This document shows, in pieces, positions 11,523-50,907 of a stretch of 64,000 nucleotides of DNA. The notes beneath the pieces were generated by a model, which saw only the letters and a list, made by a program, of their open reading frames with translations, did no database searches and had not been told where the DNA came from. Numbering within the stretch: position 1 is the stretch's first letter; every line of letters begins with the position of its first letter. The position numbers and the translations under genes were made by a program. The DNA comes from an uncultured Verrucomicrobiota bacterium (GTDB taxonomy: Bacteria > Verrucomicrobiota > Kiritimatiellia > RFP12 > UBA1067), in assembly GCA_946623785.1 (NCBI GenBank), contig CAMORM010000001.1, forward strand, positions 1,397 through 65,396, written 5' to 3'.

Positions 11523-12782
11523 ATGAGCGATAGCGTCACCACATACGGAAGCGGAACTCTAGGTGAACTTCCCGGGAATGTACGCATTTACACGGCAGAG
11601 GAAACGGACTCCGTAGTTGAGACCGCCGTTTCGGCTTCGGTCGATGGACTCAGCGGAGAAATCACGTCAAGGCTGGACGAGTTGAGCGGAACAATCGCAG
11701 ACATGTCAGGGTCTGCTGTTGCCGAAGATACACTGAACCAGTTGATCAAGATCGGCGAAGACCCATCCTGCGGAAGCAGGAACGCGCTCCTTCTTGCGAG
11801 CGGTGGACCGGAGTGCGGATTCGGATACGAAACGCCTTCCGTCATCAAGGCTAGGATATATGACGATGATAATAACGTCATATGGGACACAGTTCTGACG
11901 GATAGCATGTTCGAAGTCAACGGAACGTCTGGTCGTTCCGGCATTCTTTCAGCGATGAGCGGGATTGCAGACGTTCAATATGCAATCAGCGATGCGTACG
12001 GCAGCTACGGCGGTGCAACGATATTGTCTGGAATTCGCAATGCGACGCTCGCAGGACTTCTAGCGACGAATATCGGTATTAGCGGCCGAGGCGATACCGA
12101 CGCAACAGACTCGACAACGGTTGGGGGCGCTCTCAAGCGAATTCTTGATTATTTTGTAGGAGACGAACAGCATGCCGAAACAGCATGGGATTCTCTTTCA
12201 AAACTTGCCCAGGGGCTTTATGTGCCACATTCTGTCACGGCCGATGAGGTGACAGACATCATCAGCGGTTATCTTGAAGATAATCTTTGTCGACTTGTAA
12301 GCGGCTGCCTCTCCGGCTACACGGCGAGTCTCGATGCGCTTACGAACGCCGTGTCTGGCCTAAACGACCAAGTCGGAGTCCTACAGAGCGGCATCGAGAA
12401 CATGGTCTCCGGTCTTGCCGACACCATCGTCCAGTCGCTCACCACGGCGGAGGAGGAGGCTGATTCTCCGGAGGAGCAGCAGCGGGTCGCCGCGGCGAAG
12501 GCGGCGTTCGCAGACCCCGTGAAGCGGGACGAGACGATCGATGCCGCGAAGAAGAGCGTCGGCAACAGCATCAATGAAGACATCACGCCTGCTGTCGACA
12601 ACGTTGCCGATAAGCTCGATGCGCCGAACACCGACGAGGATGTCGCCGGTGCCGCGTCCAATGTGGACGATGGAGGCCCGACCGCCGTGGAGGCGCAGGA
12701 CACGTCCGACAACATCACGAAGCCGAACGGAGTGTCCGACGGGCTCGACCAACTCGCGACAGAACTGATTGGAGAGATCTGA
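11523..12782 (+). CDS. putative tail fibre/needle-like protein (419 aa) with AT-rich (about 50% GC) N-terminal two thirds
   Basis: Ser/Gly/Thr/Asp-rich; GC drops sharply over about 11560-12400; position in the tail block; function is a guess. Confidence 0.35.
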   Translation: MSDSVTTYGSGTLGELPGNVRIYTAEETDSVVETAVSASVDGLSGEITSRLDELSGTIADMSGSAVAEDTLNQLIKIGEDPSCGSRNALLLASGGPECGFGYETPSVIKARIYDDDNNVIWDTVLTDSMFEVNGTSGRSGILSAMSGIADVQYAISDAYGSYGGATILSGIRNATLAGLLATNIGISGRGDTDATDSTTVGGALKRILDYFVGDEQHAETAWDSLSKLAQGLYVPHSVTADEVTDIISGYLEDNLCRLVSGCLSGYTASLDALTNAVSGLNDQVGVLQSGIENMVSGLADTIVQSLTTAEEEADSPEEQQRVAAAKAAFADPVKRDETIDAAKKSVGNSINEDITPAVDNVADKLDAPNTDEDVAGAASNVDDGGPTAVEAQDTSDNITKPNGVSDGLDQLATELIGEI

Positions 12783-13355: not shown

Positions 13356-14732
13356 ATGGCTACCACTACGACCACAGCGGGCATGGCCCTTGGCAACATC
13401 CCCCTCAGCACCCTGATGGTGGACAAGGATGCCGTCGTCGACATCGTGTCCGGCGAGGCGGAGGAGATTCTGTCCGGCGTCCAGGAGATCGTGGACACCG
13501 CCGTCAGCACGGCGTGGAAGGCGGGCGGCAGCGCGGCTCCGGCCGACCTCACCTCGTCCCTGCTCGTCAAGGCGAACGAGGGCAAGGTGTACAACATGTC
13601 GGCGTCCGGCACCACCGACTCCAACTTCATGGAGGGGGCTGGCAAGCCGTACACCGCCGGAACGGACATCGCCGTCATCAACACCGGAACCGCCGCCTCG
13701 CCCGTCTACAAGTTCAACGTGCTTGCTACGCAGGATTCCTCCGTGGTGAAGTCCGTGAACGGAATCACTCCGACGAACGGCGCGGTGACGATCCCGAACG
13801 CGGGCGCGTCCACGAACGGCCTCATGACGAGCGGTGACTACACGAAGCTGTCCGGCATCGCCTCCGGCGCGGAGGCCAACCAGAACGCCTTCGCGAAGAT
13901 TGCCGTTTCCGGCGTGGCAGGAACCGGCGACGCGGCGTCCAAGACGGACACCCTCACCCTCGTCCCCGGCGACAACGTGACGATGAGCCGGAGCGGGAAG
14001 TCGGTGACGATCAATGCGACCGTTCCGTCGGGCGTCGTGACTGGAGTCGCCACTGACAGCGGAACGGCCTCGGCAGATTCAAGCGGACACGTCGATATCC
14101 ACGGAAACAACGGCGTTTCCGTTGTCGTGTCTGGAAGCAGCGTTATCTTTGTCGATGGCTCTTCGATTTCCGGCGTCGCATCCGGTGCGGCATCCGGTGT
14201 GACTGCGCTCTCCGGCGTCGTGTCCGGCCTAAAGAACTTCTCCAAGGTCACGGTCGTGAATTCCGGCGGGACCGCCGTGACGAACGGAACTCTGACGCCC
14301 GCATCAAACGCGGACGATACGCTCAAACTTCAAGCCGGAAGCAACGTGACCCTTTCCGTCACGTCCGGCACAAAGACGGTCAAGATCGACGCGTCCGTCC
14401 CCGTGAAGGACGGAAAAATCAGCGGAGGCTCGTCCCTGCTGTCCGGCACGACCATCGTGATTCCGCAGGCTGGTAGCGGAGCGGGCCGCCTAGGCGTTGT
14501 CGCGCTGGATGACTATCCTGAAGAAAATAATACTATCGCTTCTGGAATCGCCGTTGCCGCAACTCCAGCCGCCGTTGCCACTCGCGTTAGCAAGTCGGTT
14601 CTTGATACGAACGTGACCAAGGTTTCCGCCGACACGCAGACGCCGGCTTCGTATGACACCGGGGATACTCTCCCAAACACGATCTACGGCCTCATTCGCG
14701 CGATCAAGATCACGAACGACACGGCAAACTAA
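13356..14732 (+). CDS. Ser/Thr/Gly-rich fibre or tail protein with tandem beta repeats (458 aa)
   Basis: repeated units GDNVTMSRSGKSVTINATVP and GSNVTLSVTSGTKTVKIDASVP plus SGVASGAASGV runs; AAGGAGAAAAGAAA ribosome-binding site. Confidence 0.45.
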   Translation: MATTTTTAGMALGNIPLSTLMVDKDAVVDIVSGEAEEILSGVQEIVDTAVSTAWKAGGSAAPADLTSSLLVKANEGKVYNMSASGTTDSNFMEGAGKPYTAGTDIAVINTGTAASPVYKFNVLATQDSSVVKSVNGITPTNGAVTIPNAGASTNGLMTSGDYTKLSGIASGAEANQNAFAKIAVSGVAGTGDAASKTDTLTLVPGDNVTMSRSGKSVTINATVPSGVVTGVATDSGTASADSSGHVDIHGNNGVSVVVSGSSVIFVDGSSISGVASGAASGVTALSGVVSGLKNFSKVTVVNSGGTAVTNGTLTPASNADDTLKLQAGSNVTLSVTSGTKTVKIDASVPVKDGKISGGSSLLSGTTIVIPQAGSGAGRLGVVALDDYPEENNTIASGIAVAATPAAVATRVSKSVLDTNVTKVSADTQTPASYDTGDTLPNTIYGLIRAIKITNDTAN

Positions 14733-14753
14733 CCACACACAACCACGCACACA

Positions 14754-15632
14754 ATGGCCCAGAAGAAACCAACTCAGCCCGAAACCGCCGCCTCGCCCCG
14801 TCCGCAGGAGCAGGAGGCTCCCGCCGTCCCGCCCGCTGCTCCCGCCACCGGACCCGTCCACGTCGCGTGGTGCATCGACGTGCAGGGGCAGGGCGCGGCG
14901 CAGTTCTGCGACCAGCTCTATGTCTCCGTCAAGTCCGTCCGGGACACGAAGCGGCCCGAGGACGAGGTGGTGGCACACGTCTGCTACGCGCACGTCTCGG
15001 TCGAACTCATGGAGCGGCTGCACGCGCTGGACGCGGACGGATTCAAGGTCGTGACGCGGCACATCACGGACCAGGATCTCGCGTACTGGCAGCAGTTCAC
15101 AAAGCACGACCCTCGCTCCGCGGCCCGTCCGTGGGGCGGCATCGTGTTCGCGCGCATCTGGCTGCCTCTGCTCCTGCCGAACGTGGACCGGTGCGTCTAT
15201 CTCGACGCCGACACGATGTGCCGCGCGCCGATTGCCGAACTTGCCGCGACGAACCTCGACGGCAAGTGGCTCGGCATGAACCTCGGCTCCGTGCCGGAGT
15301 ACGGGTACAACAGCGGCGTGATGGTGATGGACCTCAAGGCAATGCGCGAGGACAATACACTCTACCAGCGCCTGGGGGAGTTCATGGCGCAATACACGCG
15401 CTCGTTCCACTGCCCGGACCAGACCACGATCAATAGGTTCTTCGCCGACAGGATCGCGGACATTCCGCGCGAGTGGAACTACCCGCCGACACCGGGGGCT
15501 GCCGACCCGGAGATGATGAAGGCGAGGCTCTGGCACTTCTACAACGGCCATCAGAAGCCGTACCGGATCGCAGCGGACGACTTCGGGCGCGCGCTCGTTC
15601 TCTGGAACAATCTGCTTGCGGAGGAGAAGTGA
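14754..15632 (+). CDS. glycosyltransferase, family 8-like (292 aa)
   Basis: VYLDADTMC DxD motif and NSGVMVMDLKAMRE, as in LPS 1,3-galactosyltransferase-like enzymes; embedded in the tail gene block. Confidence 0.55.
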   Translation: MAQKKPTQPETAASPRPQEQEAPAVPPAAPATGPVHVAWCIDVQGQGAAQFCDQLYVSVKSVRDTKRPEDEVVAHVCYAHVSVELMERLHALDADGFKVVTRHITDQDLAYWQQFTKHDPRSAARPWGGIVFARIWLPLLLPNVDRCVYLDADTMCRAPIAELAATNLDGKWLGMNLGSVPEYGYNSGVMVMDLKAMREDNTLYQRLGEFMAQYTRSFHCPDQTTINRFFADRIADIPREWNYPPTPGAADPEMMKARLWHFYNGHQKPYRIAADDFGRALVLWNNLLAEEK

Positions 15633-15844
15633 TGGACGGATACGACTTCAAAGAGGCGGGCGCCGTGCGGCTGGACGCCATCGTGCTGACGCGCGAGGGC
15701 GACAAGCGGTTCGGCGAGTGCAGAATCCAGAAGGACGAACTTCGCTGCCGCAACTCGCACGGCGAGGAGTTCTGGGTGAGCACGGGGTGCGTGCTCGTCG
15801 TCCCGCATTTCGCCATCGCGGTCAGGGTGAAGGAGGGCAAGTAA
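15632..15844 (+). CDS. small protein (70 aa)
   Basis: GGAGGAGAAG ribosome-binding site; ATG overlaps the glycosyltransferase stop. Confidence 0.4.
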   Translation: MDGYDFKEAGAVRLDAIVLTREGDKRFGECRIQKDELRCRNSHGEEFWVSTGCVLVVPHFAIAVRVKEGK

Positions 15845-16981
15845 ATGCCTAGCGCACTTGGCAACATTCCTCTTGACGAGCGCGTCCTGACCGAGGCGGA
15901 TGTCCTCCACTACGACAGTCAGGTGGAGTACTTGGAGAGTGACGGAACACCATACATCAATACTGGCTACCTCCTTACGGACAACACTGAAATAGAGGTC
16001 AGAGCCGCTCTTACGCAGTCAGTCCAGAACGCTCCGGCGTTCTTCGGGTCTAGAGTTGACCGCAACGGCACAAACGGCGTTGTGTCGTGGTGGGACTCCG
16101 ACGAGTTCTGGTGCTACGCTCCGGGAAATGGAAATTCTTCTGAAACCAAGGTCTCGATGAGTTTCCCTGTCGGTACACAGTTTATTTTCAAGTACGCTGG
16201 CGACGGCATCTATGTCAATGGTATAAAGAAGACAACATACAGGACTAAGACTCCGTTGACCAACCAACTACCTCTATGGATTTTTGCAATTAACAACGGG
16301 GGAGTACATTACAACCCAAGAGTACCATGCCGTATCTATAATTTTAGAATCTACGAGTCCGGCGTCCTCGTCCGTGACTTCATACCTGTCCGCAAGAACG
16401 GCGTGGGCTACCTGTACGACAAGGTGTCAGGCCAACTCTTCGGCAACGCCGGGACAGGTGCATTCCAGTACGGCGAGGATGTTCAGGCTGATGTGTTGAT
16501 ACCACGATTGGCGAATGCCGTCGCGGTCAACACGGCGATAAGTACGATCAATTCCAATCTTAATGGCATCGACGAGTGGCTGGCTTCCGGATGGAAGGAA
16601 ACGGCGCAATTGTCGGTCGGATCGATTGCGTCTGGATGGTCGTTCTCTCCGGACGGCAGCACCTGGAACAACAAGGTGCGGTTTTTCCACTGGGGACAGC
16701 TTGGATACATCATGGGGGCCTTGCGAAAATCGTCCGCGCTCGCCGCAAACACAAATTCAACTAGTGTAGGAATAATCACATGGCCATCCGGATACACGTT
16801 GATTGGTGCTGGAGGTGGTCTTGGTGATCAGCGCATGAACATTGTGATTAATGGTGGCGGTAGCATCACCATGCTAAATATTTCGGCTGTTTCCGCCAAT
16901 GACGCACTAACGATTCGAGCTTTTGTTCCTCTTGGGACCATCGGCGGCAGCTGGACTAGAACCGAGGTTGAGACAATCTAG
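15845..16981 (+). CDS. putative receptor-binding tail fibre protein (378 aa) with an AT-rich central patch
   Basis: TAAATG overlap; Asn/Gly/Ser-rich beta-type sequence; region about 16100-16400 is far more AT-rich than its surroundings. Confidence 0.4.
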   Translation: MPSALGNIPLDERVLTEADVLHYDSQVEYLESDGTPYINTGYLLTDNTEIEVRAALTQSVQNAPAFFGSRVDRNGTNGVVSWWDSDEFWCYAPGNGNSSETKVSMSFPVGTQFIFKYAGDGIYVNGIKKTTYRTKTPLTNQLPLWIFAINNGGVHYNPRVPCRIYNFRIYESGVLVRDFIPVRKNGVGYLYDKVSGQLFGNAGTGAFQYGEDVQADVLIPRLANAVAVNTAISTINSNLNGIDEWLASGWKETAQLSVGSIASGWSFSPDGSTWNNKVRFFHWGQLGYIMGALRKSSALAANTNSTSVGIITWPSGYTLIGAGGGLGDQRMNIVINGGGSITMLNISAVSANDALTIRAFVPLGTIGGSWTRTEVETI

Positions 16982-28500: not shown

Positions 28501-31500
28501 AGAAGCAGCGCGTGCCGATGCTCCAGAAGCTCTTCCGAAACATTCCGCTTCTCAAGGACCATCTGTCCAGCTATATGAGCGAACAGCTCGGACGCGCTCC
28601 GACCACGCAGGAGGAGATGGCGGACTACCTGTTCACGGTGATTTCGAACACCAAGAGCGACGGTGGCGTTGCGCTGATTGGTGTTCCGCCCGTGCAGTCG
28701 CTTGAAGCGGTCGCTACTGAGACAAGTGGAGAAGGACCGCAGAATGGGTGGGAGCAGACGTTCCTTCCGACGAGCCAAGAGGATGCTGAGGCCGCGCGAA
28801 ACACCACGCCGAAGGCCACGGAGAACACGCGGCAGGCGCTAGGAGACCTGATTGTCAATTCGCTCAAGGACGGCGTTGTCCGGTCTAAGAACAAGAGCCT
28901 GGTCCAGCAAGTCGCGGCATTCCTTGAAGGGCTTGGCGTGGATGTCACCGACGCGAAGATGGAAGGCGAGGAGTACACCGTCAAGATCGACGCGAACGAT
29001 ACGGTGAACGCGCTGATGTATCTGCTTGCCGGTAGCGGAGGCGAGGCGGGTGCTGCCGAGGCCGTCAACACCATCATCAAACTCGCTGACGCGCTTGACA
29101 AGAATGTCAACGTCGACGAGCAAGGAAACATCAGCTTCGTTGACCGCAACGCGGAGAGCGAAGCGACGTCAGACGCCGCGCAAGAGCAGAGAGCGGAAGA
29201 AGGCGAGGGAAAGAAGGAAGAGCCCGCGAAAGAGCCTCAAACGGAACCGAAGCCCGAAGAGCCGAAGACGGCGGAGAATCCTCCTGCGCCAGCAAAGCCG
29301 AAGGAGGAGCCAAAGAAACAGGAACCTCCGAAAAAGGAGAAGTCTGAATCTGGACGCGATATGGGGTATCCAGAGCCTGAGGACGCATACATCACTCCTA
29401 CGAATGGAACCGTCTATGACATGGGCGGGAAGTCTTCAGGCAACTTCGACATGTCCGAGATCTTCAACGGTCTTACAGACGAAATTGAGAAGCGCGCCAA
29501 GGACCATCCTGGTGAAGCGCAGATTGTCAGAGTTCCCGTGAAGAACGGTCCCGAAGGAGCGGCATACATTGAGTTCTCGGTTCTCCGCAAAGGCGACGAA
29601 CTCAGCGTGTCGGCACCTAGAATCGTCGATGCAAGCGGAAACCAAGTGAAGGGGGTAGCAACAAAAGGCGTCAACCTTCAGACGGATTCGCAGCAGGTTT
29701 CGAAGAAGACCCTCAAAAATCCGAACAACGAGCAGAAGGCCGAGGCGAAGGCGAACAAGGAAAGGGCCGCTGCCGCCGCAGACGCGATCCAGAAGCAGCT
29801 TGACGCTCGTGAGAAAATCAACAAGAAGGCGCAGGAGACTACGTCGTCTCCTTATGGCCCTCGTGCAAAGAATCCAACAGCAATCGAGCGCGGCGAGATG
29901 CCGCAGCCTCGTGGCGAGGGCAGCCCGCTGGCTCGCGGGCCTGAACCGACTCCGCAGAACGCGCGCGTTCCCCGTTCGTTGAAGCGCGTCTCGATGACGG
30001 ATCTCGGTCCTGTCGGCGAGGGCAGCCCGCTGGCCAAGGTCGACATGGCGCAGAAGAAGACCAAGGTCCGCACGGACGCGAACGGGAAGAGAACGCTGAA
30101 GAAGCAACCTCGCAGCGTCAAGGAAATCAGCGCAGAACTTGAGAAGGCGAGCGACGCATTCTATGCCGAGCATGTAATGGATGACGGGCTCTTCTATGAC
30201 GATCAAATTCGGGACGGAGGTAGGGTCGACTGGAGCGAAGTTCCGGAAGGGGATCGACCAGAGATTGTCAACGGATGGCGCTTCCACAAGATGGATGCTA
30301 TATACGGAGACGGCAGTTCGTCCGGTTGGGTTGTAACTCTTGACGAGCAGTGGAAGCCGTTCAAGAAGAAGATGACAGCTCTTGAGAAGGAGCTTGCCGA
30401 TGCGAAGAAGCGCGAGTCTGAGGAAGATTCCAATGTTCCACAGCCTGTCGCACCTGCTGCTCCTACTCAGGCGGTTCCTGTCCAGCAGAACATTCCTCAG
30501 CCAGCGGAGCCAGCCGCACAATCCGCAAAGCAACGCGTTTCGGAAGCAGTCGGCAAGGGAACAGAGGGGATCGTCAAGGCGGCGTCCGATCTCTCCGGCA
30601 TCGACGTTGGCGAGTATCTCGTTGAGGACTACGTGAGCGACACGGCACGCGCAAAGCCGCACCAGCCGTACACTCGCTACGTCCCTTCCGATGCGGACTA
30701 CCGCGGGGACATCCCAATTCACGTTGGCGTGCTTGCCGGGTTCACTTCGGAGCGGTTCGACGGACTGACCGACGAGGAGCAGCAGTACAACACTGTCCGC
30801 ACCGTCACGAACTCCGGCATCGCCGAGAGGATTCGCGACGACTTCGAGTCGATGGCGGACCGGCTCAACGACAACAGCGCAGGGCCTCTCTCCGACCAGG
30901 ACATCGGTCGCGCTCTTGCTCTTTACGCGTGGCTGTCCGACGGCACGAAGGGGGCCGACGGAGACTTCGGCGAGATGCTGTCGCAGGCGTCGGACTTCAT
31001 GGACGAGCGCGGGATGGACAACTGGGCGGACGAGGTCGCGGATCGCGCAGGTGACTTCATGGAGGCGATGGAGGGCTACGCGGAGCGCGAACTCGGCGTG
31101 GAGCTGTCTGAAGGCGAGGTTCGCGGAGAGGCTGCGAACGAGGAGGGTGAAGACGCGGAGCCGATTCGTCCGAAGATGGAGTTCGACGGACGTTTCGAAT
31201 CTATTGACAGCAAGGAGCAGGGAAGGGTTCTTGGCGAGGTCGAAAGGACGGCGCTGAACGTCATCGACGACCTCATCTTCGCCGCGTCTCCGATTGACGC
31301 GAAGCGGACGAAGGAGGCTGATTCGCTGGCTCATTCTATGATGATGCTGCCGTTCCAGTCATACAAGCTGTTGAACGAAGAGCAGCAGAAGCGCGTCGCC
31401 GCTCTTGTCGGTTCGTTCGTCGACAGCGAGGTGCCGGACAGGAATGCGAGCCCGGACCAGAAGATGCTCGAGCTTCTGGTCGACGCGATGTACGAGAAGC

Positions 31501-34500
31501 TCGCCGCCGAGCAGAACGTCGACTATGCAAAGCTTGGCCGTGATGCGGTAGACGCGAACGACAAGAGGATGTCCGTGTTCGATGACGGACCTGATGCCTC
31601 TCGCGTGAAGAGAGGCATCGTTGAAGATATGGTCTTCAACCTCTTGTCGCGAGCGGCTGGAATGAAGGCTACGGCGCACTATTCGAGGTTCGCGTCCGAC
31701 CAGACCGCCAGATTCGCGAACATGGACACGCTCCGCAAGGCGAACCCTCCGCTCGACTCGCTCCTGCGGTACATCGGAAACAACCTCACGGGGCGTCGGC
31801 GCGTATTCCAGAATCCAGCTCATCACTTCCAGATCGAACGAGACGAGGAATCCCCTCGCGCGGCGGTTCGCAACGCCATCCGGTTCATCCGCGAAAAGGG
31901 ATTCCCGGAGTGGGAGATCCGCGACGCGCTCCGCAAGGAGTGGGGCTCCGGGTCCGTTGTCGAGCGCGAGCTCATCAAGCAGATGGTCATCCGCGACGAG
32001 CGACGCGCCGGGAGGAACATCACATACACAGGGTGGAAGCTCGGAGAGGGCCTGTCCACGCGGGACGTGGATGCGTTCAACGAGACGATGAAGGCGGTCG
32101 GGCAGCCGACCACGATGGACGGCGCGTTCACGGACATCCAGCGCGTCGATTACGTTCTCGACGAGAATGGGAACACGTTCGAGCGGCAGGTGCCGTGGGA
32201 CGACACCACGCTGGAGAAGGCTCAGCTTGCCACCATCACGCGCAATCTTCTGAACGAGGCGGACGATGCGGCAAGCGCGATGCTCGGGAAGGTCGAGTTC
32301 CTGACGGACTCAGAACTCAAGGAACTGGACGGTGCGTTCGCCGCGCAGGCGAAGCTCAAGCGACTCTACAACCGTCTGACTGGCGTAAAGGAGGAGAACG
32401 CCGGAAGCCAGGATCGCAGTCAGACGGCGCGAGTCGCGGACAGCATGGCGCGCCAGCCGGACCGCGCGGCGAACGGACTGTTCTCCGCGTCCGCGCTTCA
32501 GCACCACCGCTCGCTTGCGAACAAGCGGTTCGACGCGATCTCGACGGCCATCCGCTCGTCGCGCGAGAACAAGCCGTTCGGCGCGCAGCCGCTCTTTGAC
32601 GAGAAGGCTGAGGCGAGGGTTCAGAGCCTTGTCTCCATGCCGGCGATGGGCGGCAGGATGTCGCTTGCCGATGCGATTGCGAAGGATGACGCCGCGGCAG
32701 GAATCTGGGCGGCGAGGTCGGCGATCATGTATGCCGAGATGTCGCCGAAGAGCGAACTGTCCGGCTCGCTCGTCCAGCAGGTTGCCGCGCGCATCGCCCG
32801 CATCTTCGCAGACGCGTTTCCGGAGCAGGCCGAATGGCTCGACCCGAAGGCGGACAACAAGAAGGCGACGAGGAACAATCCGCTCAAGCCCACGCAGATC
32901 CTTGCATGGAAGGGCGGCACGATGCTCGACGAGGTTGTCAAGTACGAGCTCGGGCCGGAAGGGACGCGCGACCTCGGTTCCCTCCTGTTGCTCGGGCCGG
33001 AGAACGATGTTGCGTCCTACGTTCGGACGCCTGTCGCCATTGACATGATTCTTCGCGCTCTGGAGCAGGTCGCTGCCCGCAACGAAGGAGTCCCGGATGC
33101 AGTGTTCGAGCGCATCGACGCGCTCCGTCACTCGCTTGAACGAATCGTTCTCGGATTCTCGATGGACGTGAAGCAGCCTCGGATGTTCGAGATTCAGGCG
33201 ATGCAGGGCGTCCGCAATGTTCTTGCTGAAAAGTTCCCGATCCGTGACTTCTCGGATGCGGTGATCTCCGGCGTAGACGAGGAGCTTGAGCGGAGGGAGA
33301 GCAGGGTCGAGAAGACCCGTGGCACGCCCGTCGACGAAATGCTCGACGCCGTAAATGCCGAGAACGGTCTGGACGAAGCAGGGTTCGACGAGGGCGAAGA
33401 AAACAGAGACGCGACCGGAGAGTCTGCCGAGATGGCCGAGCAGCGCAGGCTTGACGAAAGGGACGCCGCACAGTCTCGCTTCGCGTCGGACGCGTCTCTC
33501 GCGCTTGCCGACCCGAACACGGTCGCGTCTGCGCTTGTCGCATTTCGCGTAAAGAACAATGACGGTTCGTTCTCCTACTCCACGCGCGTTGCAGACGCTC
33601 TGCAATATGAGCGGATTCTGAAAAACGATCCAAGCTACACGTTCTGGAAGGAAAAGACGGACTACGACAAGCTGATGGAGCAGACGAAAGCCCGGCTGCA
33701 GAACGACCCCGGAGCGATCCAGCAGCTTGTCCAGGACGTTCTCAACGCATGGGACAAGACGGAAGCGACGGGTCGGCGCGCGGACTTCCGCGTGTCCGCA
33801 TCGCAGCTTCTCGACCTCAGGGCCAATCTAATTATGAGGCAGGCGGAAGTCAAGAAGGCGACGGACGCGCTGTTTGAAGCCGAGGCCAAGAGCGACGGGT
33901 CCGTGAACATCCAAGACCTTCGCGCCGCCGTTGCGGAGAAGGAGGCGCTTCTCTCGCAGGCAGTCCACGCCACGGCGTTTGCCGAGTCGGCAGCTGGCAC
34001 GGCGCTCGGTTCGCTCTCGCGTCTCGTCAAGGAGGACTTGTCTCTGGGCGAGCAGATGAGGCAGGCCGAGAAGGTCATCCGCAACACGAAGGGAATCGCC
34101 GCGGAAAACCGCGGTCCGCTCACAGCCGCAGAGATCGCGAAGCTCAAGGAGATCGCGGGCAAGTACGAGAAGGTCTGCAAGGAGCGCGACGCGCTTCTCA
34201 AGGAGAAGCAGGATGGATGGCGAAAGGAGCACGTCGACGGGAAGATTGAAGAAGGCATCCGCGAGGCGCGCAAGGGCAAGGCTGCAGGACGCAAGGCGAA
34301 GTCCGTAGCGGAGGCGGTGGAGGCTGCGCGCAAGGAGCTTGCGGACGGCGAGATGGTGGACATCTCGGTCTACCCGGAACTCTGGGCGCAGATCGGCGAC
34401 GCGGTGAAGGGAATCGCGCAGGCCATCATCGGAGAGCATCTGGAAGGGCCGTCGCGGCTCAAGGCGCTCGACCACGCGGAGTTCGCTCGTCGGCTCCTCG

Positions 34501-37157
34501 CGGAGACGAATCGCGCCTACGAAGGCCGCATCACCTCGCGCGACACGAACCACCAACAGCTCACGGAGCGCGACGTGATGGACCTTTTCTCGGACTACGG
34601 CGACCCGGAGAAGCTGCAGACCGACTACGACATCGCCGCGACGGAAGAACTGGAGCGCATGAAGAGCCAGTCGGCAAGGATGAAGGAACTTGCAAGGCTT
34701 CAGTCCGCGCTCGAAGACGTCAAGGCTGGCAGGCCTCCTCTCGAAGCATTCGGGCATCTGAGCAAGCTTGGTCCCACGCAGATTGACGAGGAGCTGGCGC
34801 GCGTCAGGAAGGAGCTGGACGATGCGTTCCGCCAGTCCGGCATCTCGACCGACCTGCTTCACCGCAAGATGAGTCCGATTGACCTAGCGCGCGAAAGTCT
34901 GGAGCGGCGCATCGAGGAAATCAAGAAGAACCTCGCGGCAGGAGAGATCGCGAAGAAGGAGGGGCGCGCGCCTCTCGTTGGCGAGGAGGGACTTGCGTCG
35001 CTCCGGGAGGAGCTCGCGTTCCTCCAGTCCGTGCAGAACGCCACGTTCAAGAACCGCGGCCTCACCGACAACGAGCGGATGCAGAAGATCGAGGAGATGT
35101 ACCGCAAGCGGGAGAAGGCGGCGAGCGACGAGCTCCTGCGCCTGATGTCCGGCGGGCGTCCGGTGAAGCCGCTCGACATGAGCGACGATGGTGCGAGGAG
35201 CGCGTGGGCTCACGCGGACGCGGAGTGGAAGAAGAAGGCCGGAGAGGCGAGGCGCGCGGCCGCCGCCGCTTCGCGCAACCTCAACGAACTGCGGAAGGCG
35301 CTCCAGTCAGAATCCTACAAGGGCGAGCGCGCGCTCGAGATGGCGATCGCTAGGAAGGAGGACCTCGCTGCACGATGGCGCGACGCGCTAGCGGCAGGTC
35401 GCGTCCAGATTATCGACAAGAGCCGAAACGGCAAGTACGACCAGTACGACCGTCGGCTTCTTGAGGTCAACCGCGAACTCAAGAACCTCGTTCGTCAGAA
35501 GAACGAGCGCATCGCGCAGATCGCGTTCGACCGCAAGAACAAGTTCGCGCAGGTTGTGTCGAAGATCTGGCAGGCGCCAAACCTCCAGCGCATCGTCCAG
35601 GCGTCCGGAGACCTTTCGTCCATCGGCGTCCAATGCGCCGTCGCGGTCCTCGCGAACCCCATCCACGGCATGCGTGCTGTCATCCCCGGCATCAAGGCGT
35701 TCTGGGGCGGGCTGTTCAACAAGCCGGAGTATACGGAGGCGTTCTTCGAGAAGCTTCGGCAGGACCCGGACTTCAACCGCATCGCCGACTTCGTGGCCAT
35801 CCCGGAGACGGACGGGAAGGGCGGGTTCCTTCAGGGCGGAACGGAAGAGTTCTTCAACCGCAAGGCGGTGCAGGACAGGTTCCCGAAGCTGTTTGGCTTC
35901 GACCTGTTCGACAACGCATACCTTCGCGCGTCAGAGGCCGGGTTCAACGTGCCGGTAGCGCTCATCCGATTCTCGCTAGCAAAGAAGCTCATCCAGCAGA
36001 TGCGTACGTTCCGCGGCGAGAACTACAAGCCGACGGACGATGAAATGCGTCTCATCGGCAACGTGGTCAACGCTGCGACCGGCAAGGGCAAGTGGCTTGC
36101 GGACGGAAGCAAGGTTAATCTCTCCGGCCTTCTTTGGGCGGCTAGCCGCGTGTCTGGACAGGTTGAGAGCCTTGCGATTGTACCGAGGCTTCTTGCTCAC
36201 GGCGAGGTCGGTGGAGATGTTCGTAGGATGATCGCAAAGGAACTCATCCTTCGTCCGATGCTGCACTTTGCGGAAGCGATGCTTCTGCTTGGACTGGCGC
36301 ACGCGATGTTCAAGGACGAGGACGACGACGATCCGTTCCTCGAGATCGACCCGCGCAGCAGCAAGTTCCTGCGCGCGAAGATCGGGAACCGCTACATCTC
36401 CATCACGGGCGGTCTTGAGCAGTACGTCGTCCTTCTTAGCAAGGCCGTCTCCGGGCAGGTCAAGACGAAGGATGGCGAGATCATCAAGTTGCGCGGAGAA
36501 GGCGCGGCATACGGACGCGCCTGGTCGGACGAGCTGTCGAGGATGTTCTGGAGCAAGATTCGCCCTGACGTCGGCCTCGCAAAACAGCTCATTGATGCTA
36601 GAACGGCGACAGGCAAGCGCATCCAGCCGACGTGGTTCGGCAAGGACGGACGCCTGCTGTTCCTCGTCAACAACACCGTCATGCCGCTCACGGCCCGTGA
36701 CATCATCGAGGCAGGCGTCGACATCGGCGAGAACGGGATGGGCGTGACAACCGCGCTTGCGTCAATCGCCGTCCTCGGCTACAACGGCAGCGACTTCGGA
36801 GAGAATGCCTACACGAAGGACCGGGCGAAGATTGACCGCGTGGCGCAGGCCCGCCGCGACATGAAGAACGGCAAGGAAGGCGCGGACGAGAAGTACGCCG
36901 CGATCGCCGGACAGGAGGCGATGCAGCGCTACATCTCGGCGTCGGAGAGCAAGCGCGTCAAGAAGATCGGAGACCGCATCACCGAGCTGGACGAGCTTCT
37001 CGAGCGAGGGGAGCCGAAGCGCGCGAAGAAGAACGGCCCCATCCTCTCGCGCCGGATGCTTACGCGGCAGGAGCGCAAGGAGGCGCGAGAGGAGAAGGAG
37101 CGGCTCGAGGCCGAGTACCACGAGCTCGTGTGGCCCGAACTCAAGCGGATTCGATAG
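25563..37157 (+). CDS. giant multi-region protein (3864 aa) with a zincin-like HExxH motif (HESFH at residues 881-885) and hydrophobic C-terminal segments; candidate virion-packaged ejection or polyvalent protein
   Basis: one uninterrupted 11,595-nt frame with uniform GC3 bias; start 4 nt after the preceding stop; acidic N-terminus, long Ala/Lys/Glu helices, HExxH, repeated GEGSPLA; no NTPase motifs seen. Confidence 0.55.
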   Translation: MPIDNINDPWRNEEEEPEIQAAHHPVQQQQTEEGSDLGGLPEVSREEQSRVYLDALARSQGAERFEQEQKPEPEPTQNGPSPNDIVEVAGQPQQETQEPPPDPYAPTWEQKHDIRHVDYGMGMDDERRARDKLVDQIKAQVRFARDHGQDVTNEEWGDNEQIDAVLNGYGVRENFSPEATDMLNRFAEHVGVKYQAAKDEMGRLEGVVNTAKNTLNPNAIVEGWAETTKTLGWMTGSVSDQDFEDYLLDKMDKDELSRISDPGKVEGLKDVHGVLDAFALVGNVFAEQSSIIAESMIVAGLSAATGGAAAGAFGGARLAAREAAEKAVRKAAQKEIRKIAEKKALEATARKAGAAAAKAATEAAARKATAKSIGSNIGALVVDAQFNLGSSAEQRMSEAMARGSTHIDKGAVFGQAAGRTFADYFGPIRKMATRPFRAGTTIQQMAADGVLTDARTFAGGLVGAGARYAKDAFGAGLSFEGETISDRITNKVINDTYLLNGERDWTDAFASDLETFVKGGIMSVTGIPSLARRSFAEVQMNRAVDAFADTNGAAFDNAFAKSRRERDTFASPGFRSLDLTSQRSILEMNRLKAKLDQENNLAKSGTAGEIGEAAGNAFQIQNQIDKLRETLSPEGRKWVDAYNSQFNRPGVGMQDFDKAVKSDPNVAAKLQTEYAPDVSGVDQVVDWVSKLVGKELSYDNIRNAANENGGLVIDSGNVRIRIDDGLENGLVVSVCRTDGGPMADTYVSEFRQADFAEDGESVDSSDAFYKTLQAATGCARKLSSWAKWSDAQTYGRDMSFANALAQKSGRNVTIIRSARDLVNAGLVDERGIFKGSNEQVLGDLPNGLNGKWRGVTTGDGHIYVNASAYRSPAELAAIIDHESFHSRFIEMVKNGVGEKEAQKIAADFERKYGRPLSADNLKRAMKATILGVELTADDFAGLNDDAVDQKLAKTLTKKLDDALVSREERLAYDSEGMIPQKQRVPMLQKLFRNIPLLKDHLSSYMSEQLGRAPTTQEEMADYLFTVISNTKSDGGVALIGVPPVQSLEAVATETSGEGPQNGWEQTFLPTSQEDAEAARNTTPKATENTRQALGDLIVNSLKDGVVRSKNKSLVQQVAAFLEGLGVDVTDAKMEGEEYTVKIDANDTVNALMYLLAGSGGEAGAAEAVNTIIKLADALDKNVNVDEQGNISFVDRNAESEATSDAAQEQRAEEGEGKKEEPAKEPQTEPKPEEPKTAENPPAPAKPKEEPKKQEPPKKEKSESGRDMGYPEPEDAYITPTNGTVYDMGGKSSGNFDMSEIFNGLTDEIEKRAKDHPGEAQIVRVPVKNGPEGAAYIEFSVLRKGDELSVSAPRIVDASGNQVKGVATKGVNLQTDSQQVSKKTLKNPNNEQKAEAKANKERAAAAADAIQKQLDAREKINKKAQETTSSPYGPRAKNPTAIERGEMPQPRGEGSPLARGPEPTPQNARVPRSLKRVSMTDLGPVGEGSPLAKVDMAQKKTKVRTDANGKRTLKKQPRSVKEISAELEKASDAFYAEHVMDDGLFYDDQIRDGGRVDWSEVPEGDRPEIVNGWRFHKMDAIYGDGSSSGWVVTLDEQWKPFKKKMTALEKELADAKKRESEEDSNVPQPVAPAAPTQAVPVQQNIPQPAEPAAQSAKQRVSEAVGKGTEGIVKAASDLSGIDVGEYLVEDYVSDTARAKPHQPYTRYVPSDADYRGDIPIHVGVLAGFTSERFDGLTDEEQQYNTVRTVTNSGIAERIRDDFESMADRLNDNSAGPLSDQDIGRALALYAWLSDGTKGADGDFGEMLSQASDFMDERGMDNWADEVADRAGDFMEAMEGYAERELGVELSEGEVRGEAANEEGEDAEPIRPKMEFDGRFESIDSKEQGRVLGEVERTALNVIDDLIFAASPIDAKRTKEADSLAHSMMMLPFQSYKLLNEEQQKRVAALVGSFVDSEVPDRNASPDQKMLELLVDAMYEKLAAEQNVDYAKLGRDAVDANDKRMSVFDDGPDASRVKRGIVEDMVFNLLSRAAGMKATAHYSRFASDQTARFANMDTLRKANPPLDSLLRYIGNNLTGRRRVFQNPAHHFQIERDEESPRAAVRNAIRFIREKGFPEWEIRDALRKEWGSGSVVERELIKQMVIRDERRAGRNITYTGWKLGEGLSTRDVDAFNETMKAVGQPTTMDGAFTDIQRVDYVLDENGNTFERQVPWDDTTLEKAQLATITRNLLNEADDAASAMLGKVEFLTDSELKELDGAFAAQAKLKRLYNRLTGVKEENAGSQDRSQTARVADSMARQPDRAANGLFSASALQHHRSLANKRFDAISTAIRSSRENKPFGAQPLFDEKAEARVQSLVSMPAMGGRMSLADAIAKDDAAAGIWAARSAIMYAEMSPKSELSGSLVQQVAARIARIFADAFPEQAEWLDPKADNKKATRNNPLKPTQILAWKGGTMLDEVVKYELGPEGTRDLGSLLLLGPENDVASYVRTPVAIDMILRALEQVAARNEGVPDAVFERIDALRHSLERIVLGFSMDVKQPRMFEIQAMQGVRNVLAEKFPIRDFSDAVISGVDEELERRESRVEKTRGTPVDEMLDAVNAENGLDEAGFDEGEENRDATGESAEMAEQRRLDERDAAQSRFASDASLALADPNTVASALVAFRVKNNDGSFSYSTRVADALQYERILKNDPSYTFWKEKTDYDKLMEQTKARLQNDPGAIQQLVQDVLNAWDKTEATGRRADFRVSASQLLDLRANLIMRQAEVKKATDALFEAEAKSDGSVNIQDLRAAVAEKEALLSQAVHATAFAESAAGTALGSLSRLVKEDLSLGEQMRQAEKVIRNTKGIAAENRGPLTAAEIAKLKEIAGKYEKVCKERDALLKEKQDGWRKEHVDGKIEEGIREARKGKAAGRKAKSVAEAVEAARKELADGEMVDISVYPELWAQIGDAVKGIAQAIIGEHLEGPSRLKALDHAEFARRLLAETNRAYEGRITSRDTNHQQLTERDVMDLFSDYGDPEKLQTDYDIAATEELERMKSQSARMKELARLQSALEDVKAGRPPLEAFGHLSKLGPTQIDEELARVRKELDDAFRQSGISTDLLHRKMSPIDLARESLERRIEEIKKNLAAGEIAKKEGRAPLVGEEGLASLREELAFLQSVQNATFKNRGLTDNERMQKIEEMYRKREKAASDELLRLMSGGRPVKPLDMSDDGARSAWAHADAEWKKKAGEARRAAAAASRNLNELRKALQSESYKGERALEMAIARKEDLAARWRDALAAGRVQIIDKSRNGKYDQYDRRLLEVNRELKNLVRQKNERIAQIAFDRKNKFAQVVSKIWQAPNLQRIVQASGDLSSIGVQCAVAVLANPIHGMRAVIPGIKAFWGGLFNKPEYTEAFFEKLRQDPDFNRIADFVAIPETDGKGGFLQGGTEEFFNRKAVQDRFPKLFGFDLFDNAYLRASEAGFNVPVALIRFSLAKKLIQQMRTFRGENYKPTDDEMRLIGNVVNAATGKGKWLADGSKVNLSGLLWAASRVSGQVESLAIVPRLLAHGEVGGDVRRMIAKELILRPMLHFAEAMLLLGLAHAMFKDEDDDDPFLEIDPRSSKFLRAKIGNRYISITGGLEQYVVLLSKAVSGQVKTKDGEIIKLRGEGAAYGRAWSDELSRMFWSKIRPDVGLAKQLIDARTATGKRIQPTWFGKDGRLLFLVNNTVMPLTARDIIEAGVDIGENGMGVTTALASIAVLGYNGSDFGENAYTKDRAKIDRVAQARRDMKNGKEGADEKYAAIAGQEAMQRYISASESKRVKKIGDRITELDELLERGEPKRAKKNGPILSRRMLTRQERKEAREEKERLEAEYHELVWPELKRIR

Positions 37158-38394
37158 ATGCGGCAGCGGAGGCGTCGCGGGCGGGGAGCACGTTGAAGTA
37201 CTCCTCCGCCTCGCGCCTCGTTGCGAGGCCCTGGTAGTGCTTGACGCGCATCTGCGCCGAGGTGCCGACGATCATCTCCGTCCTGCGCGGATCGCCGTGC
37301 ATCGCGATGTGCATCGTGACGAACGAGTGGCGTCCGGCGTTGTGCGGCCAGTTGACGGGCGAGGCGAGGTTGCGCTCGGCGAAGTCCTTGACGAGCCGCG
37401 AGAACGCGTCCACGCGGAACAGTTCGTCGAGCAGCTTGGCGTCTGCGGGGCCGTCGGTGCGGACGGGATAGGCGAGCATCCACGCCTTCGCCGCGTCGGT
37501 GAGGTAGACGATGCGCGGCGGCGTGCCGTGCTGGAACCCCTTCGGCGTGATGCGGACGTACCCTTCGTCGAGGTTCACGTCTCCGCGCTGGATGCGGAGA
37601 AGCTCCTCGGAGCGGACGCCGTTGAAGAACGAGAGGGCGATGGACCAGATGATCTGGTTGCGGCGGCGCGAGTTCCTGTCCATGGCGACGGCGGTGTCGA
37701 GGATCTGGCGCAGGTCGTCCGCCCTGACGAACTCGGGCTCGTGGTACTCGACGGCCTTCGCGGAGAACGCGGCCATCGGGTTCTCGGCGCAGTACTTCTG
37801 CCGGAGGCACCAGGAGAAGAACGACTTGAGGTAGGACATGTTGTTGTTCCATGTCTTCGGAGCGCACGAGCCGAACCGCGACGAGAGATACGCCTTGGCC
37901 TTGTCCGTGGTGACGGCCGAGACGAGCGTGTCGCGTCCGAACCAGTCGATTGCCAGACCGACGCGGTTCTCCACGGCGGAGCGCTGGACCTTCTGGACGG
38001 CGGAGTACTGCGAGACGTACTCGGTGTACGCGTCGAGCAGCTTGGTCGGCGTGAACATCTTGTGTCCGTCGACGAACGCGCGCGCCGCCTCGACGAGGGT
38101 GGCCTCGTGGAAGCCGGCTGCGTCGAGGATCTGGCGGGCGAGCTGGTAGTCCGCGAAGCCGCCCGCGGTGAAGTCGCGCGCGACCTTCGGCGTGAGCCCG
38201 TTGCTCTGCGCCGCGTAGAACTCGTCGATGGCCCGCTTGAGCTCGTCCTTGGTTGCCCGCTCGAAGCGGATCTTCCTGTGAGTGAGCTTGTCGGTTCCGA
38301 GGTAGCACGACCACGAGGTGTAGGTGGTGCCGTTGGCGGTCTTGGTGATCTGTCTGAGGCTCCTGATGGCCTCATCCTTTCGCTTCATTCCCAT
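37141..38394 (-). CDS. int: tyrosine integrase (phage integrase family)
   Basis: C-terminal catalytic signature HNAGRHSFVT...HGD...VKHYQG (R-H-R-Y type); N-terminal SAM-like region; convergent with the giant gene and overlaps its end. Confidence 0.8.
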   Translation of the reverse strand: MGMKRKDEAIRSLRQITKTANGTTYTSWSCYLGTDKLTHRKIRFERATKDELKRAIDEFYAAQSNGLTPKVARDFTAGGFADYQLARQILDAAGFHEATLVEAARAFVDGHKMFTPTKLLDAYTEYVSQYSAVQKVQRSAVENRVGLAIDWFGRDTLVSAVTTDKAKAYLSSRFGSCAPKTWNNNMSYLKSFFSWCLRQKYCAENPMAAFSAKAVEYHEPEFVRADDLRQILDTAVAMDRNSRRRNQIIWSIALSFFNGVRSEELLRIQRGDVNLDEGYVRITPKGFQHGTPPRIVYLTDAAKAWMLAYPVRTDGPADAKLLDELFRVDAFSRLVKDFAERNLASPVNWPHNAGRHSFVTMHIAMHGDPRRTEMIVGTSAQMRVKHYQGLATRREAEEYFNVLPARDASAAASIESA

Positions 38395-38457
38395 TGCGTT
38401 TCCCTTCCGTTGTGTCTGTTCTCTGGACTGAAACTAGGCGGAAAAATTTCCGTCCAT

Positions 38458-38598
38458 CTTGTGTTTGTGCGCTCTGGGAGAGGCGATTTAACTGGTGCCG
38501 GGAGCGGGGATCGAACCGACTGCGGCAGCAAGACGGGCGGAAAGAAGAATCCGCTAGTGTTTCAGCTGGTTATGTTGTGTTTTGTGCGTTGTTTGGGA
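38458..38598. other. candidate attP: core resembling a tRNA 3' end (CCA end at 38493 on the - strand, T-loop GGTTCGATCC) flanked by direct repeats TTGTGTTTGTGCG / TTGTGTTTTGTGCG
   Basis: on the - strand the sequence reads ...GGTTCGATCCCCGCTCCCGGCACCA; the matching 5' acceptor strand is absent so this is not a whole tRNA; it lies directly upstream of int. Confidence 0.35.
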
Positions 38599-38671
38599 CT
38601 GGCTGTAGGGGTGCGTTCCCGCACCCATGTGCCGTGTCTGGCGCGTATGATAGACGGAAAACAGACAGAAG

Positions 38672-38860
38672 TCAAGAGCGGTTTTCCATGTCCGCGAACG
38701 CCCCGACGCAGGTCTGGTATACTGAGCCTTCCGCCTTGAGACGGAACGCCTCGGCCTTGGCTCTGGCGACCGGGCAGGAGGAGCAGTCCTTCTGGCTCTT
38801 GCAGTACTTGATGAAGGCTGCCGGAATTCCCAGCAGCCCGTAGCGATCCATGTTGCTCAT
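38672..38860 (-). CDS. small Cys-containing protein (62 aa) adjacent to the att region
   Basis: GGGAGA ribosome-binding site; 3' end of the spurious long track ORF 38672-39922; an excisionase role is possible but unsupported. Confidence 0.3.
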   Translation of the reverse strand: MSNMDRYGLLGIPAAFIKYCKSQKDCSSCPVARAKAEAFRLKAEGSVYQTCVGAFADMENRS

Positions 38861-38871
38861 ACGATGTCTCC

Positions 38872-39387: not shown

Positions 39388-39813
39388 CTACATCACGTCC
39401 TCGGGCTTGAGGTCGCGAAGCTGTCTGTACTTGTCGAGGTATGGCAGGGTGCAGTCGCGCTCCGCCCCAAGCGGGCCTCCGTTGTGGATTCTGGCGAGAA
39501 CCTCGTCTGTGGCGGGTTGGCCGGTGCGGCGCTCGTAGGATTCGCCGTAGCGCATGAGGTAGGCGCGAACGACGACCTCGGCCTTGTAGGGGTCGTGCAT
39601 ATCCTGCAAGGTGTAGGCCGTGCCGAGGCGCTGGTTGGCGTCGTCGAGGTAGCACTGTCGGATCTGATACCGACCGTGCGCTCCCTCGGCTTCGTTGACG
39701 GCTGCGTCGTCGACTCCCGATTCGACCATTGCGAGGTCGCACAGGAATGCGTGGTTGACTTCGGATGCGATTGTGTAGAGGCTCATGGTTAGCAGGATGA
39801 TTAGGGGTTTCAT
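39388..39813 (-). CDS. lytic transglycosylase (SLT-like) with signal peptide; candidate endolysin
   Basis: MKPLIILLTMSLYTIAS signal peptide; ES...GAHGRYQI and AYL..YG motifs as in family-1 lytic transglycosylases. Confidence 0.55.
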   Translation of the reverse strand: MKPLIILLTMSLYTIASEVNHAFLCDLAMVESGVDDAAVNEAEGAHGRYQIRQCYLDDANQRLGTAYTLQDMHDPYKAEVVVRAYLMRYGESYERRTGQPATDEVLARIHNGGPLGAERDCTLPYLDKYRQLRDLKPEDVM

Positions 39814-49890: not shown

Positions 49891-50907
49891 CTAGAGGGTG
49901 TCGGGGATGTCCTCGATCTCGTCCTCTGGGGTATAGGGCAGGTCGGGCGGCGGCGTGCGCGTCTCGGGGGCGGGCGGCTCCGCTGGCGGCTCGGGCTCGT
50001 TCGCCTTGGCGGCGGCCGCGGCAGCAGCAGCCTTCTCCGCCAGAGTGGGCTTCTTGGCCTTCGGCGTCACGTTCACGGTCGCCTTCGCCTCCACGATGTT
50101 CTGGTCGAAGAAGTCCTCCGGCTTCGCCATGCCGTCCTTGAGCGAGACGAAGATCTTGCGGAGCGCGATGACCTGCGCCGGAGTGATGGCGTCGAGGTTG
50201 CGCTGGATCTTCGCCACGATCTGCGACTTCGTGACGCCGAGCTTGGCGAACGCGTCCACGAGCTTCTTGATCGTGGCCTCCGAGATGTCGGCGGTCGCGG
50301 TGAGCGTCTGCTCGCACTGGTTCACGGCGCTCTCGATCACGTCGCCGGGAATGCACTCGAGAATGCAGGCACGGACGCGGCGCATCGCCTCGTTCGCGAC
50401 CTTCTCGTAGATGTCGCGCGGGTCGGTGAGCAGCTTGTCCCCGTTCTTCGTGTGCCGGATGTGCGAGACGACGAACGCCCGCTCGACCGGGATGTTGGAC
50501 TCCATGTCGTAGGCGTAGCACAGCACCTCGGTGTTGAGCTTGTCGCTGCCCGTGACCTTGAACCCGTACTTGATGTTGCCCCATGCGCGGGCGGCCGCCT
50601 CGGCAAGCCGGATGGACGGGCCGGTGATGTCCGTCCCCATCCGTGCGTAGGTGTAGACCGCCTGCTCGGCCAGAGTGGGGCGCTGGCAGGCGACGAGGAG
50701 CTTCTCGACGGACTTCGCCTCGTCGCGCGGCCACTGCTTGGCGGCCATGACCATTGCGAAGGACTCGGCCTGTGCCTTGGCCTGCGCGATCTGGACCTCG
50801 GAGCTGCTGGCTCCGGCGGCGATGGTGGCGAGGGAGGACGCGGCGTCCGCCGGGGTGGCGGCGGCGACGGCTCCGTAGGGATTGTCAACCTTGACGATGT
50901 TAGCCAT
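49891..50907 (-). CDS. recT: RecT-family single-strand annealing protein
   Basis: QRPTLAEQAVYTYARMGTDITGPSIRLAEAAARAWGNIKYG core; acidic C-terminal tail; adjacent YqaJ exonuclease. Confidence 0.6.
   Translation of the reverse strand: MANIVKVDNPYGAVAAATPADAASSLATIAAGASSSEVQIAQAKAQAESFAMVMAAKQWPRDEAKSVEKLLVACQRPTLAEQAVYTYARMGTDITGPSIRLAEAAARAWGNIKYGFKVTGSDKLNTEVLCYAYDMESNIPVERAFVVSHIRHTKNGDKLLTDPRDIYEKVANEAMRRVRACILECIPGDVIESAVNQCEQTLTATADISEATIKKLVDAFAKLGVTKSQIVAKIQRNLDAITPAQVIALRKIFVSLKDGMAKPEDFFDQNIVEAKATVNVTPKAKKPTLAEKAAAAAAAAKANEPEPPAEPPAPETRTPPPDLPYTPEDEIEDIPDTL

Follow-up and report, generated by a model that had tools for sequence, protein, structure and literature searches.

Here we describe a 64,000-nucleotide stretch of DNA (the window; contig CAMORM010000001.1, assembly GCA_946623785.1) that makes up most of one uncultured phage genome, and in it a gene for a fibre-like protein that is followed by a gene for a family-8 glycosyltransferase (GT8). 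Both open reading frames (ORFs), as named in the original prediction from the sequence, are present on the plus strand and stand 21 nt apart. The best explanation of what we observed is that fibre and GT8 form a conserved and, by prediction, co-transcribed cassette in the host-recognition module of the phage. The conclusion that the two are a functional pair and not chance neighbours holds. Late-expressed glycosylation of the fibre, or of neighbouring receptor-binding proteins, by GT8 is the reading that we tentatively put first, with a likelihood somewhat below even; an alteration of the host surface comes second, not far behind. The features of the two genes are:

13356..14732, plus strand: tail-fibre-like protein of 458 aa, acidic (pI 4.6), called from its ORF, PHROG matches, position and mosaic build
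13356..13760, plus strand: fibN, the fibre N-terminal domain (residues 1-135), defined by its conservation across loci
13932..14027, plus strand: repeat module copy 1 (residues 193-224), found by local alignment with copy 2
14301..14402, plus strand: repeat module copy 2 (residues 316-349), found by local alignment with copy 1
14733..14753, plus strand: fibre-GT8 spacer, an A/C-rich leader (CCACACACAACCACGCACACA) without a Shine-Dalgarno (SD) motif
14754..15632, plus strand: family-8 glycosyltransferase (GT-A fold, retaining type) of 292 aa, called from PF01501, AlphaFold2 (AF2) and Foldseek
15198..15221, plus strand: DxD metal/nucleotide-sugar motif YLDADTMC (residues 149-156, with D151 and D153), invariant and aligned with YLDIDVL of LgtC
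15309-15329, plus strand: motif NSGVMVM (residues 186-192)
15411..15434, plus strand: motif CPDQTTIN (D222-Q223), aligned with the DQD of LgtC (1g9r)
15531..15563, plus strand: motif WHFYNGHQKPY (H261, K268), the invariant C-terminal His/Lys-Pro signature of GT8

The pairing was seen in eight distinct contexts. In the window and in the related loci L001, L002, L004, L005, L006, L008 and L017 a fibN fibre is immediately followed by GT8 or by a GT25-GT8 gene. It is kept in L001 and L006, where the upstream neighbourhood is inverted, and in L017, a 143-kb IMG/VR contig with a GC content of 0.55. The linkage was also tested in reverse, with 43 loci retrieved by a fibN profile. Every full-length fibN match with a usable flank precedes GT8, with one exception (L048). 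GT8 matches begin 30-130 nt after the fibre stop where GT8 stands alone and ~650-710 nt after it where a GT25 domain intervenes. The gene on the 3' side of GT8 differs between loci, being orf70 with g378 (both described below), a g378-like LRR_5 protein, or directly a homologue of g1031. Because this downstream gene varies, the upstream fibre is the constant partner of GT8.

The two partners differ in how far they have diverged. GT8 is 81-87% identical across the mosaic genomes, and in L002 it is 82% identical compared with 71% for the major capsid protein (MCP). The fibN domain is 39-94% identical across loci, and the remainder of the fibre falls to ~36%. GT8 keeps its 81-87% beside a fibre whose receptor-binding part has changed this much and whose C-terminus is switched, so the specificity of the glycosyltransferase does not seem to track that of the fibre.

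In more distant phages the same GT8 clade lies among LRR_5 or Laminin_G_3 receptor-binding-type genes without a fibN fibre, and it was also found on a 201-kb contig, among fibre, LRR_5 or Laminin_G_3 genes. GT8 was beside an integrase in none of the loci examined. L017 carries, at 15453-16262, a second, GT8-only paralogue that is 44% identical to the window GT8 and has no preceding fibN fibre. This paralogue and the GT25-GT8 gene share one tail-fibre region, the former ~6.7 kb downstream of the latter, and together they give the L017 phage three glycosyltransferase domains. L020 (2061-2933) and L021 (10441-11286) have, along with GT8, a polysaccharide pyruvyl-transferase (PF04230) or an SDR-type NDP-sugar epimerase/dehydratase; the best match of the latter is GalE-like, far under threshold. 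These companions hint at more elaborate glycans in distant relatives. On an unrelated high-GC phage contig (L059, 792-4654), several fibre-like genes that have the core fibre domain are directly preceded by two GT2 genes, a UDP-glucose/GDP-mannose dehydrogenase-like gene and an HNH/NUMOD4 endonuclease; this is a convergent case of fibre-glycosyltransferase association. Our literature searches returned no description of a fibre-linked GT8 cassette. It belongs to a known kind, the phage-encoded glycosyltransferases associated with the host-recognition apparatus.

The enzyme itself was readily classified. It matches PF01501 with E=2.3e-25 and 90.1 bits (cut-off 24.3) over profile positions 10-248 of 253, which confirms the predicted family and its motifs YLDADTMC and NSGVMVM. 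Residues D151, D153, P221, D222, Q223, T224, H261, Y263 and K268 are invariant in 30 GT8 homologues, and the catalytic motifs line up with those of LgtC in a HMMER alignment. The AF2 model has a predicted local distance difference test score (pLDDT) of 84.9. Its top Foldseek matches, at probability 1.00, are WbbM, LgtC, 3tzt, GlyE, XXYLT1, LARGE1, UGGT and glycogenin, with TM ~0.6-0.65 for WbbM, LgtC, 3tzt, GlyE and glycogenin. The assignment of 14754-15632 as a genuine GT8 with an intact catalytic signature is, as a prediction from sequence and model, solid. The protein looks like a soluble, acidic, retaining UDP-sugar transferase: its predicted pI is 5.85 in a family that is acidic (median 6.0), and we saw no obvious membrane-association feature in it.

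Residues 1-34 of the window GT8 form a disordered Pro/Ala/Gln-rich leader, at the place where relatives have a GT25 domain. No remnant of GT25 was found anywhere in the window. The searches gave 71-85 GT8 homologues (85 members with a profile), 37-87% identical and all on metagenome contigs. About half of them are proteins of ~480 aa with an extra N-terminal GT25-like domain (VFEDDA). Two scans of ~185,000 species-representative genomes found no copy of GT8, and a tblastn search of 50,697 phage records gave no match at E<=1e-5. The clade is seen only on phage-like metagenome contigs. The parallel with mycobacteriophages that had been drawn for this gene does not extend to the sequence level, since the cultured-phage records without a match include those of mycobacteriophages. 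NCBIfam holds no equivalog for GT8, the GT25-GT8 fusion, the fibre, g378, orf70 or g419.

The product of 13356-14732 is weakly predicted to be fibre-like. Its PHROG tail-fibre matches are weak (phrog_7389 at E=1.2e-5 and another at 3e-3), and PF03406 (Phage_fiber_2) is found in some of its 61 homologues and not in the window protein. The gene follows those for the portal, MCP and connector proteins inside the portal-MCP-tail module, and the protein is a mosaic of a conserved N-terminus, a cassette-like middle and two alternative C-termini. Within fibN there is a compact beta-domain at about residues 55-125, with a pLDDT of ~88 at residues 60-120. S51 and T103 are examples of Ser/Thr positions in it that do not vary. 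The AF2 monomer model as a whole is poor (pLDDT 58), and a Foldseek search with this poor model returned no match at E<=1e-3 and no support for Ig or BIG domains.

Two compositional claims about the fibre had to be corrected. It had been credited with long Ser/Thr/Gly runs; its Ser and Thr content is indeed 24.7%, against 10-18% in other virion proteins, but both this and the 36% of Ser, Thr and Gly together are evenly spread, and no S/T/G run exceeds 5 residues. Among S/T runs the longest is TTTTT (residues 3-7), and it is missing from several homologues. Likewise, the tandem beta-repeat units turned out to be one pair of ~33-aa modules. The pair is well supported (alignment score 63 against 27.8+/-5.6 in 2000 shuffles), but its copies are ~125 aa apart and so dispersed, not tandem. 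The fibre also has a short SG(V/A)x x4 stretch, and there is no tandem repeat in the DNA of the gene.

GT8 is predicted to be embedded in the late structural operon. The features around the pair that bear on this are:

11523-12782, plus strand: g419, a gene with a low GC content at third codon positions (GC3, 0.62)
15632..15844, plus strand: orf70, a hidden ORF of 70 aa that fills the apparent 212-nt gap after GT8
15845..16981, plus strand: g378, a second receptor-binding-type protein with a YLESxGTxYIxTG N-terminus and a variable C-terminus

The start codon of orf70 overlaps the stop codon of GT8 (TGATG), and the start codon of g378 follows directly on the orf70 stop (TAAATG). The program-made ORF list shows orf70 only inside a longer, GTG-started ORF. 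It has a 96% identical copy in L006/L015 only, a GC3 of 0.90 and no family matches. In relatives the spacers around GT8 range from an overlap to ~35 nt upstream and are 1-9 nt downstream. No sigma-70-like promoter and no intrinsic terminator were found within 13-17 kb by a scan that covers sigma-70-type promoters only. An SD-like motif was present at 31 of 47 other gene starts, against a background of 17%, which places GT8 among the few without one. A 338-aa gene on the minus strand (49891-50907) also lacks an SD motif, and both genes have CA-repeat leaders, CCACACACAACCACGCACACA at GT8 and CAACACACCACACACA at position 50907. Two thirds of the remaining window genes have a canonical AGGAG-type SD.

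The GC3 of GT8 (0.88) is like that of portal and MCP, of orf70, and of fibN, for which it is 0.90. Because of this core-like composition and the abutting or overlapping neighbours, we regard GT8 as a resident late gene. The idea that it is a moron was rejected on the same GC3 and the lack of intergenic space. Other parts of the region differ in composition: GC3 is 0.74 in the distal fibre, 0.62 in g419 and 0.60 in g378, while the neighbours of g419 and g378 have 0.85-0.93. By composition, the distal fibre, g419 and g378 look like exchanged modules, which suggests that g419 and g378 are receptor-binding modules recently imported from lower-GC phages. Homologues of the g378 N-terminus follow GT8 in L001, L002, L004 and L017, in the last as a 1358-aa LRR_5/Flg_new protein. 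The YLESxGTxYIxTG motif recurs in relatives, where large LRR_5/BspA-type proteins begin with it, at times in tandem copies.

A virion target and a host-glycan target are both compatible with a Leloir GT-A enzyme that works in the cytoplasm. If the virion is the target, GT8 would be produced alongside the fibre, late in infection. In the cytoplasm it would attach an alpha-linked hexose to the fibre, to receptor-binding proteins encoded nearby, or to both, ahead of virion assembly or in the course of it. In relatives with the N-terminal GT25 domain, a two-sugar unit would be built. The glycan might affect how stable the fibre is, how exposed it is to proteases or immune recognition, or how the phage adsorbs. 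We favour virion glycosylation because of the operon embedding, the constant fibN partner, the phage-restricted clade and the acidic, soluble enzyme, and further because of the occurrence on the 143-kb and 201-kb contigs, the convergent GT2 case and the mycobacteriophage precedent.

Several observations weigh against it. A full fibre homologue in L048 (GC 0.44) is not followed by GT8, and in ~25 loci the match is limited to the core beta-domain (residues 42-124), set in proteins that otherwise differ, again without GT8; together they weaken the notion that fibN is an obligate client of GT8. An acceptor tract rich in Ser/Thr or of low complexity is missing from the fibre, in which no S/T stretch exceeds 5 residues. 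No second (priming) glycosyltransferase was found among the window ORFs scanned. The top-scoring solved structures near GT8 are enzymes of lipopolysaccharide (LPS) or lipooligosaccharide (LOS) synthesis, although its structural neighbours also include the protein O-glycan extenders GlyE and XXYLT1. The GT25, pyruvyl-transferase and NDP-sugar epimerase partners in relatives are typical of polysaccharide/LOS assembly. The GT8 enzymes that have been characterised use sugars as acceptors, glycogenin being the exception. Virion glycosylation is only modestly favoured because of the missing acceptor tract, the missing priming enzyme and the mixed nearest enzymes. Of the virion O-glycosylation that had been proposed from the pairing, the conserved adjacency and the late-operon setting stood, while a Ser/Thr acceptor tract and a priming enzyme in the window did not appear.

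The strongest competitor, which we consider a real if lesser possibility, is that the enzyme modifies a host glycan. GT8, or GT25-GT8 in relatives, would then add sugar to the LPS/LOS core, an O-unit, capsule or teichoic acid at the cytoplasmic face and alter the receptor of the adjacent fibre; the gain would be superinfection exclusion in lysogens, or that progeny are not trapped on debris. Its best solved matches, WbbM and LgtC, agree with this, and about half of the homologues combine GT25 with GT8 in a way that resembles the Lic2A/LgtC-type pair for the LOS digalactoside. A lone GT8 needs an existing sugar acceptor, which a host glycan supplies, and the relatives that add a polysaccharide pyruvyl-transferase or an NDP-sugar epimerase fit in as well. 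The phage is probably temperate, with an integrase-like gene of its own and a clear PF00589 integrase in a relative; its portal and large terminase subunit (TerL) are like those of podoviruses of Gram-negative Proteobacteria, and its lysozyme-like protein has a signal- or SAR-like (signal-arrest-release) N-terminus. Conversion genes beside tailspike genes are known, for example in epsilon15. However, GT8 is upstream of essential structural genes with no room for a promoter or terminator of its own, it is nowhere near the int/att region, and its GC3 is core-like and not moron-like. Close cellular homologues were not found in the scans described above, and the protein is acidic without an obvious membrane-association feature. 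An enzyme acting on the receptor also sits uneasily with the contrast between GT8, at 81-87% identity, and the receptor-binding part of the fibre, at only ~36%. The LPS alternative of the original prediction is still live; among the nearest solved enzymes are those of LPS/LOS synthesis as well as extenders of protein-linked glycans.

A different late target is an unlikely option. It could be the capsid, a decoration protein, g378/LRR-type receptor-binding proteins, or a cytoplasmic host protein or small molecule, and in the last variant the fibre adjacency would reflect only the inheritance of a mobile cassette. The distant phages in which the clade adjoins LRR_5/Laminin_G_3 proteins without a fibN fibre speak for such a target, as does the second GT8 of L017. 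So do the targets reported for mycobacteriophages in PMC12363180, which are capsid and tail-tube subunits and not fibres. Yet in the high-GC lineage the fibN fibre is the constant neighbour, and the sequence indicates no other target. That GT8 is an inactive or decaying passenger gene is highly improbable: nothing positive speaks for it beyond the lack of the GT25 domain that many relatives have, whereas the catalytic motifs are all invariant, the fold model is confident, the codon composition is core-like, and the enzyme is conserved across mosaic genomes, in L002 more so than the MCP.

We compared the cassette with four known systems. Virion glycosylation has been described for the mycobacteriophages Che8, Corndog and Myrna (Freeman et al. 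2023, as cited in PMC12363180). The glycosyltransferases there are also of GT-A type, phage-owned and not from a host island, and a decoration of virion proteins by them has been proposed or shown. The window system differs in its family (GT8 with or without GT25) and in matching no cultured-phage record, and its candidate target is the fibre, while the targets reported there are capsid and tail-tube subunits. Moreover, the host here is not an actinobacterial model.

The LOS enzymes of Neisseria and Haemophilus, LgtC (GT8) and Lic2A/LgtB (GT25), share the GT8 core of DxD, DQ and C-terminal His with the window enzyme. LgtC was second in the Foldseek search, and relatives of the window GT8 join GT25 and GT8 in one polypeptide. 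Unlike them, the window GT8 is phage-encoded, acidic and not membrane-peripheral, lies within a structural operon and is only ~21% identical; the window also carries GT8 alone and not the GT25 plus GT8 pair of the LOS digalactoside. In the streptococcal serine-rich-repeat adhesins, GtfA/B prime a fibrous protein of the cell surface, and GT8 enzymes such as GlyE (PDB 5gvv) then extend its O-glycans. The window GT8 has GlyE as one of its top structural matches, but the identity is ~15%, the window fibre has no serine-rich repeats and no GtfA/B-type priming enzyme was found in the window. Lastly, the modifiers of lysogenic conversion (GtrABC of P22/Sf, epsilon15, TarP of S. aureus prophages) resemble our case in that a change of surface glycan is tied to the phage's own receptor and in the probably temperate lifestyle. 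Here, however, there is no flippase or GtrA/B partner, and GT8 is not at the int/att end; it is sandwiched between structural genes without its own promoter or terminator.

The rest of the window places the cassette in its genome. A fibre protein identical to that of the window is encoded on a 77,569-bp contig, which puts the phage at ~77 kb. The phage is podovirus-like. Its larger features are:

1 to ~37 kb, plus strand: block beginning with a TerL fragment, portal (phrog_332), a scaffold-like protein and MCP (phrog_267)
37141-38394, minus strand: integrase-like gene with sub-threshold integrase-family matches

The portal matches phrog_332 at E=1.5e-32 and SU10_portal. After the MCP, the plus strand continues with small connector or structural proteins, unknown tail genes and a single ORF of 3,864 aa (25563-37157, GC3 0.77) directly 3' of the tail genes. 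This ORF has a high content of Ala, Glu, Asp, Arg and Lys and no sequence match in Pfam, PHROG or PDB; one possibility for its product is a giant internal, ejection or virion-associated protein. From ~37 kb the genes switch to the minus strand, and the AT skew flips at the same point. The minus-strand genes include the integrase-like gene, a small lysozyme-like gene, a YqaJ recombinase and PcfJ/K/M-like genes. The matches of the integrase-like gene, from which GT8 is ~21.5 kb away, are under Pfam thresholds (E=1e-4 and 2e-3), and it is the relative L001 that carries the PF00589 integrase. Just upstream of the integrase-like gene, at the flip of orientation and AT skew, ~480 nt (38395-38871) are without a convincing ORF and are a candidate attP or regulatory region. 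The lysozyme-like protein (39388-39813, minus strand, 141 aa) has weak Destabilase/SLT matches and a hydrophobic N-terminus (MKPLIILLTMSLYTIASE), and could be a SAR or secreted endolysin; no recognisable holin or spanin was seen near its gene. In the early region (58094-63204, minus strand) there are PcfJ-, PcfK- and DpnD/PcfM-like genes, of families known from conjugative elements. The window has a GC content of 61% and contains no tRNAs and no Rfam families.

Among cultured-phage records, neither a megablast search with a 10-kb region nor the tblastn search with GT8 gave a match, and tblastn with the fibre and MCP gave only partial matches of ~30% identity. From these results we conclude that no annotated relative exists. 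Portal and TerL are closest to podoviruses of Proteobacteria, at 22-35% identity, which points weakly to the type of host. One homologue derived from a metagenome-assembled genome carries the label Lepagella (Bacteroidota); we rejected this as the host on account of the SD-like motifs at 31 of 47 starts and the GC content of 61%. The IMG sample series 3300031992, 3300032030, 3300037400 and 3300028833 recur among the matches, and the L008 record name contains PRJEB21624, which we take to be a cattle-rumen project. The phage lineage may be rumen- or gut-associated.

A broader reading, which we regard as rather doubtful in its full extent, is that the phage-restricted GT8 clade builds a defined short glycan on the fibres or receptor-binding proteins of uncultured gut/rumen phages. 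It would do so often with a fused GT25 and sometimes with a second GT8, a pyruvyl-transferase or an NDP-sugar epimerase, and the fibre and glycosyltransferase cassette would be mobile between phages with very different genomes. If true, this would be the first virion-glycosylation system outside the actinobacteriophages, with the host-recognition apparatus as its target instead of the capsid. If the fibre is glycosylated, gut/rumen phages would sugar-coat their own receptor-binding proteins, which would affect host range, protease resistance, immune recognition and phage engineering. If a host glycan is remodelled instead, GT8 would be a conversion gene at an unusual, late-operon position. Either way, fibre and GT8, with or without GT25, form a compact cassette that can be tested heterologously, and the phage-only GT8 clade is a useful marker of host-recognition modules in metagenomic phages.

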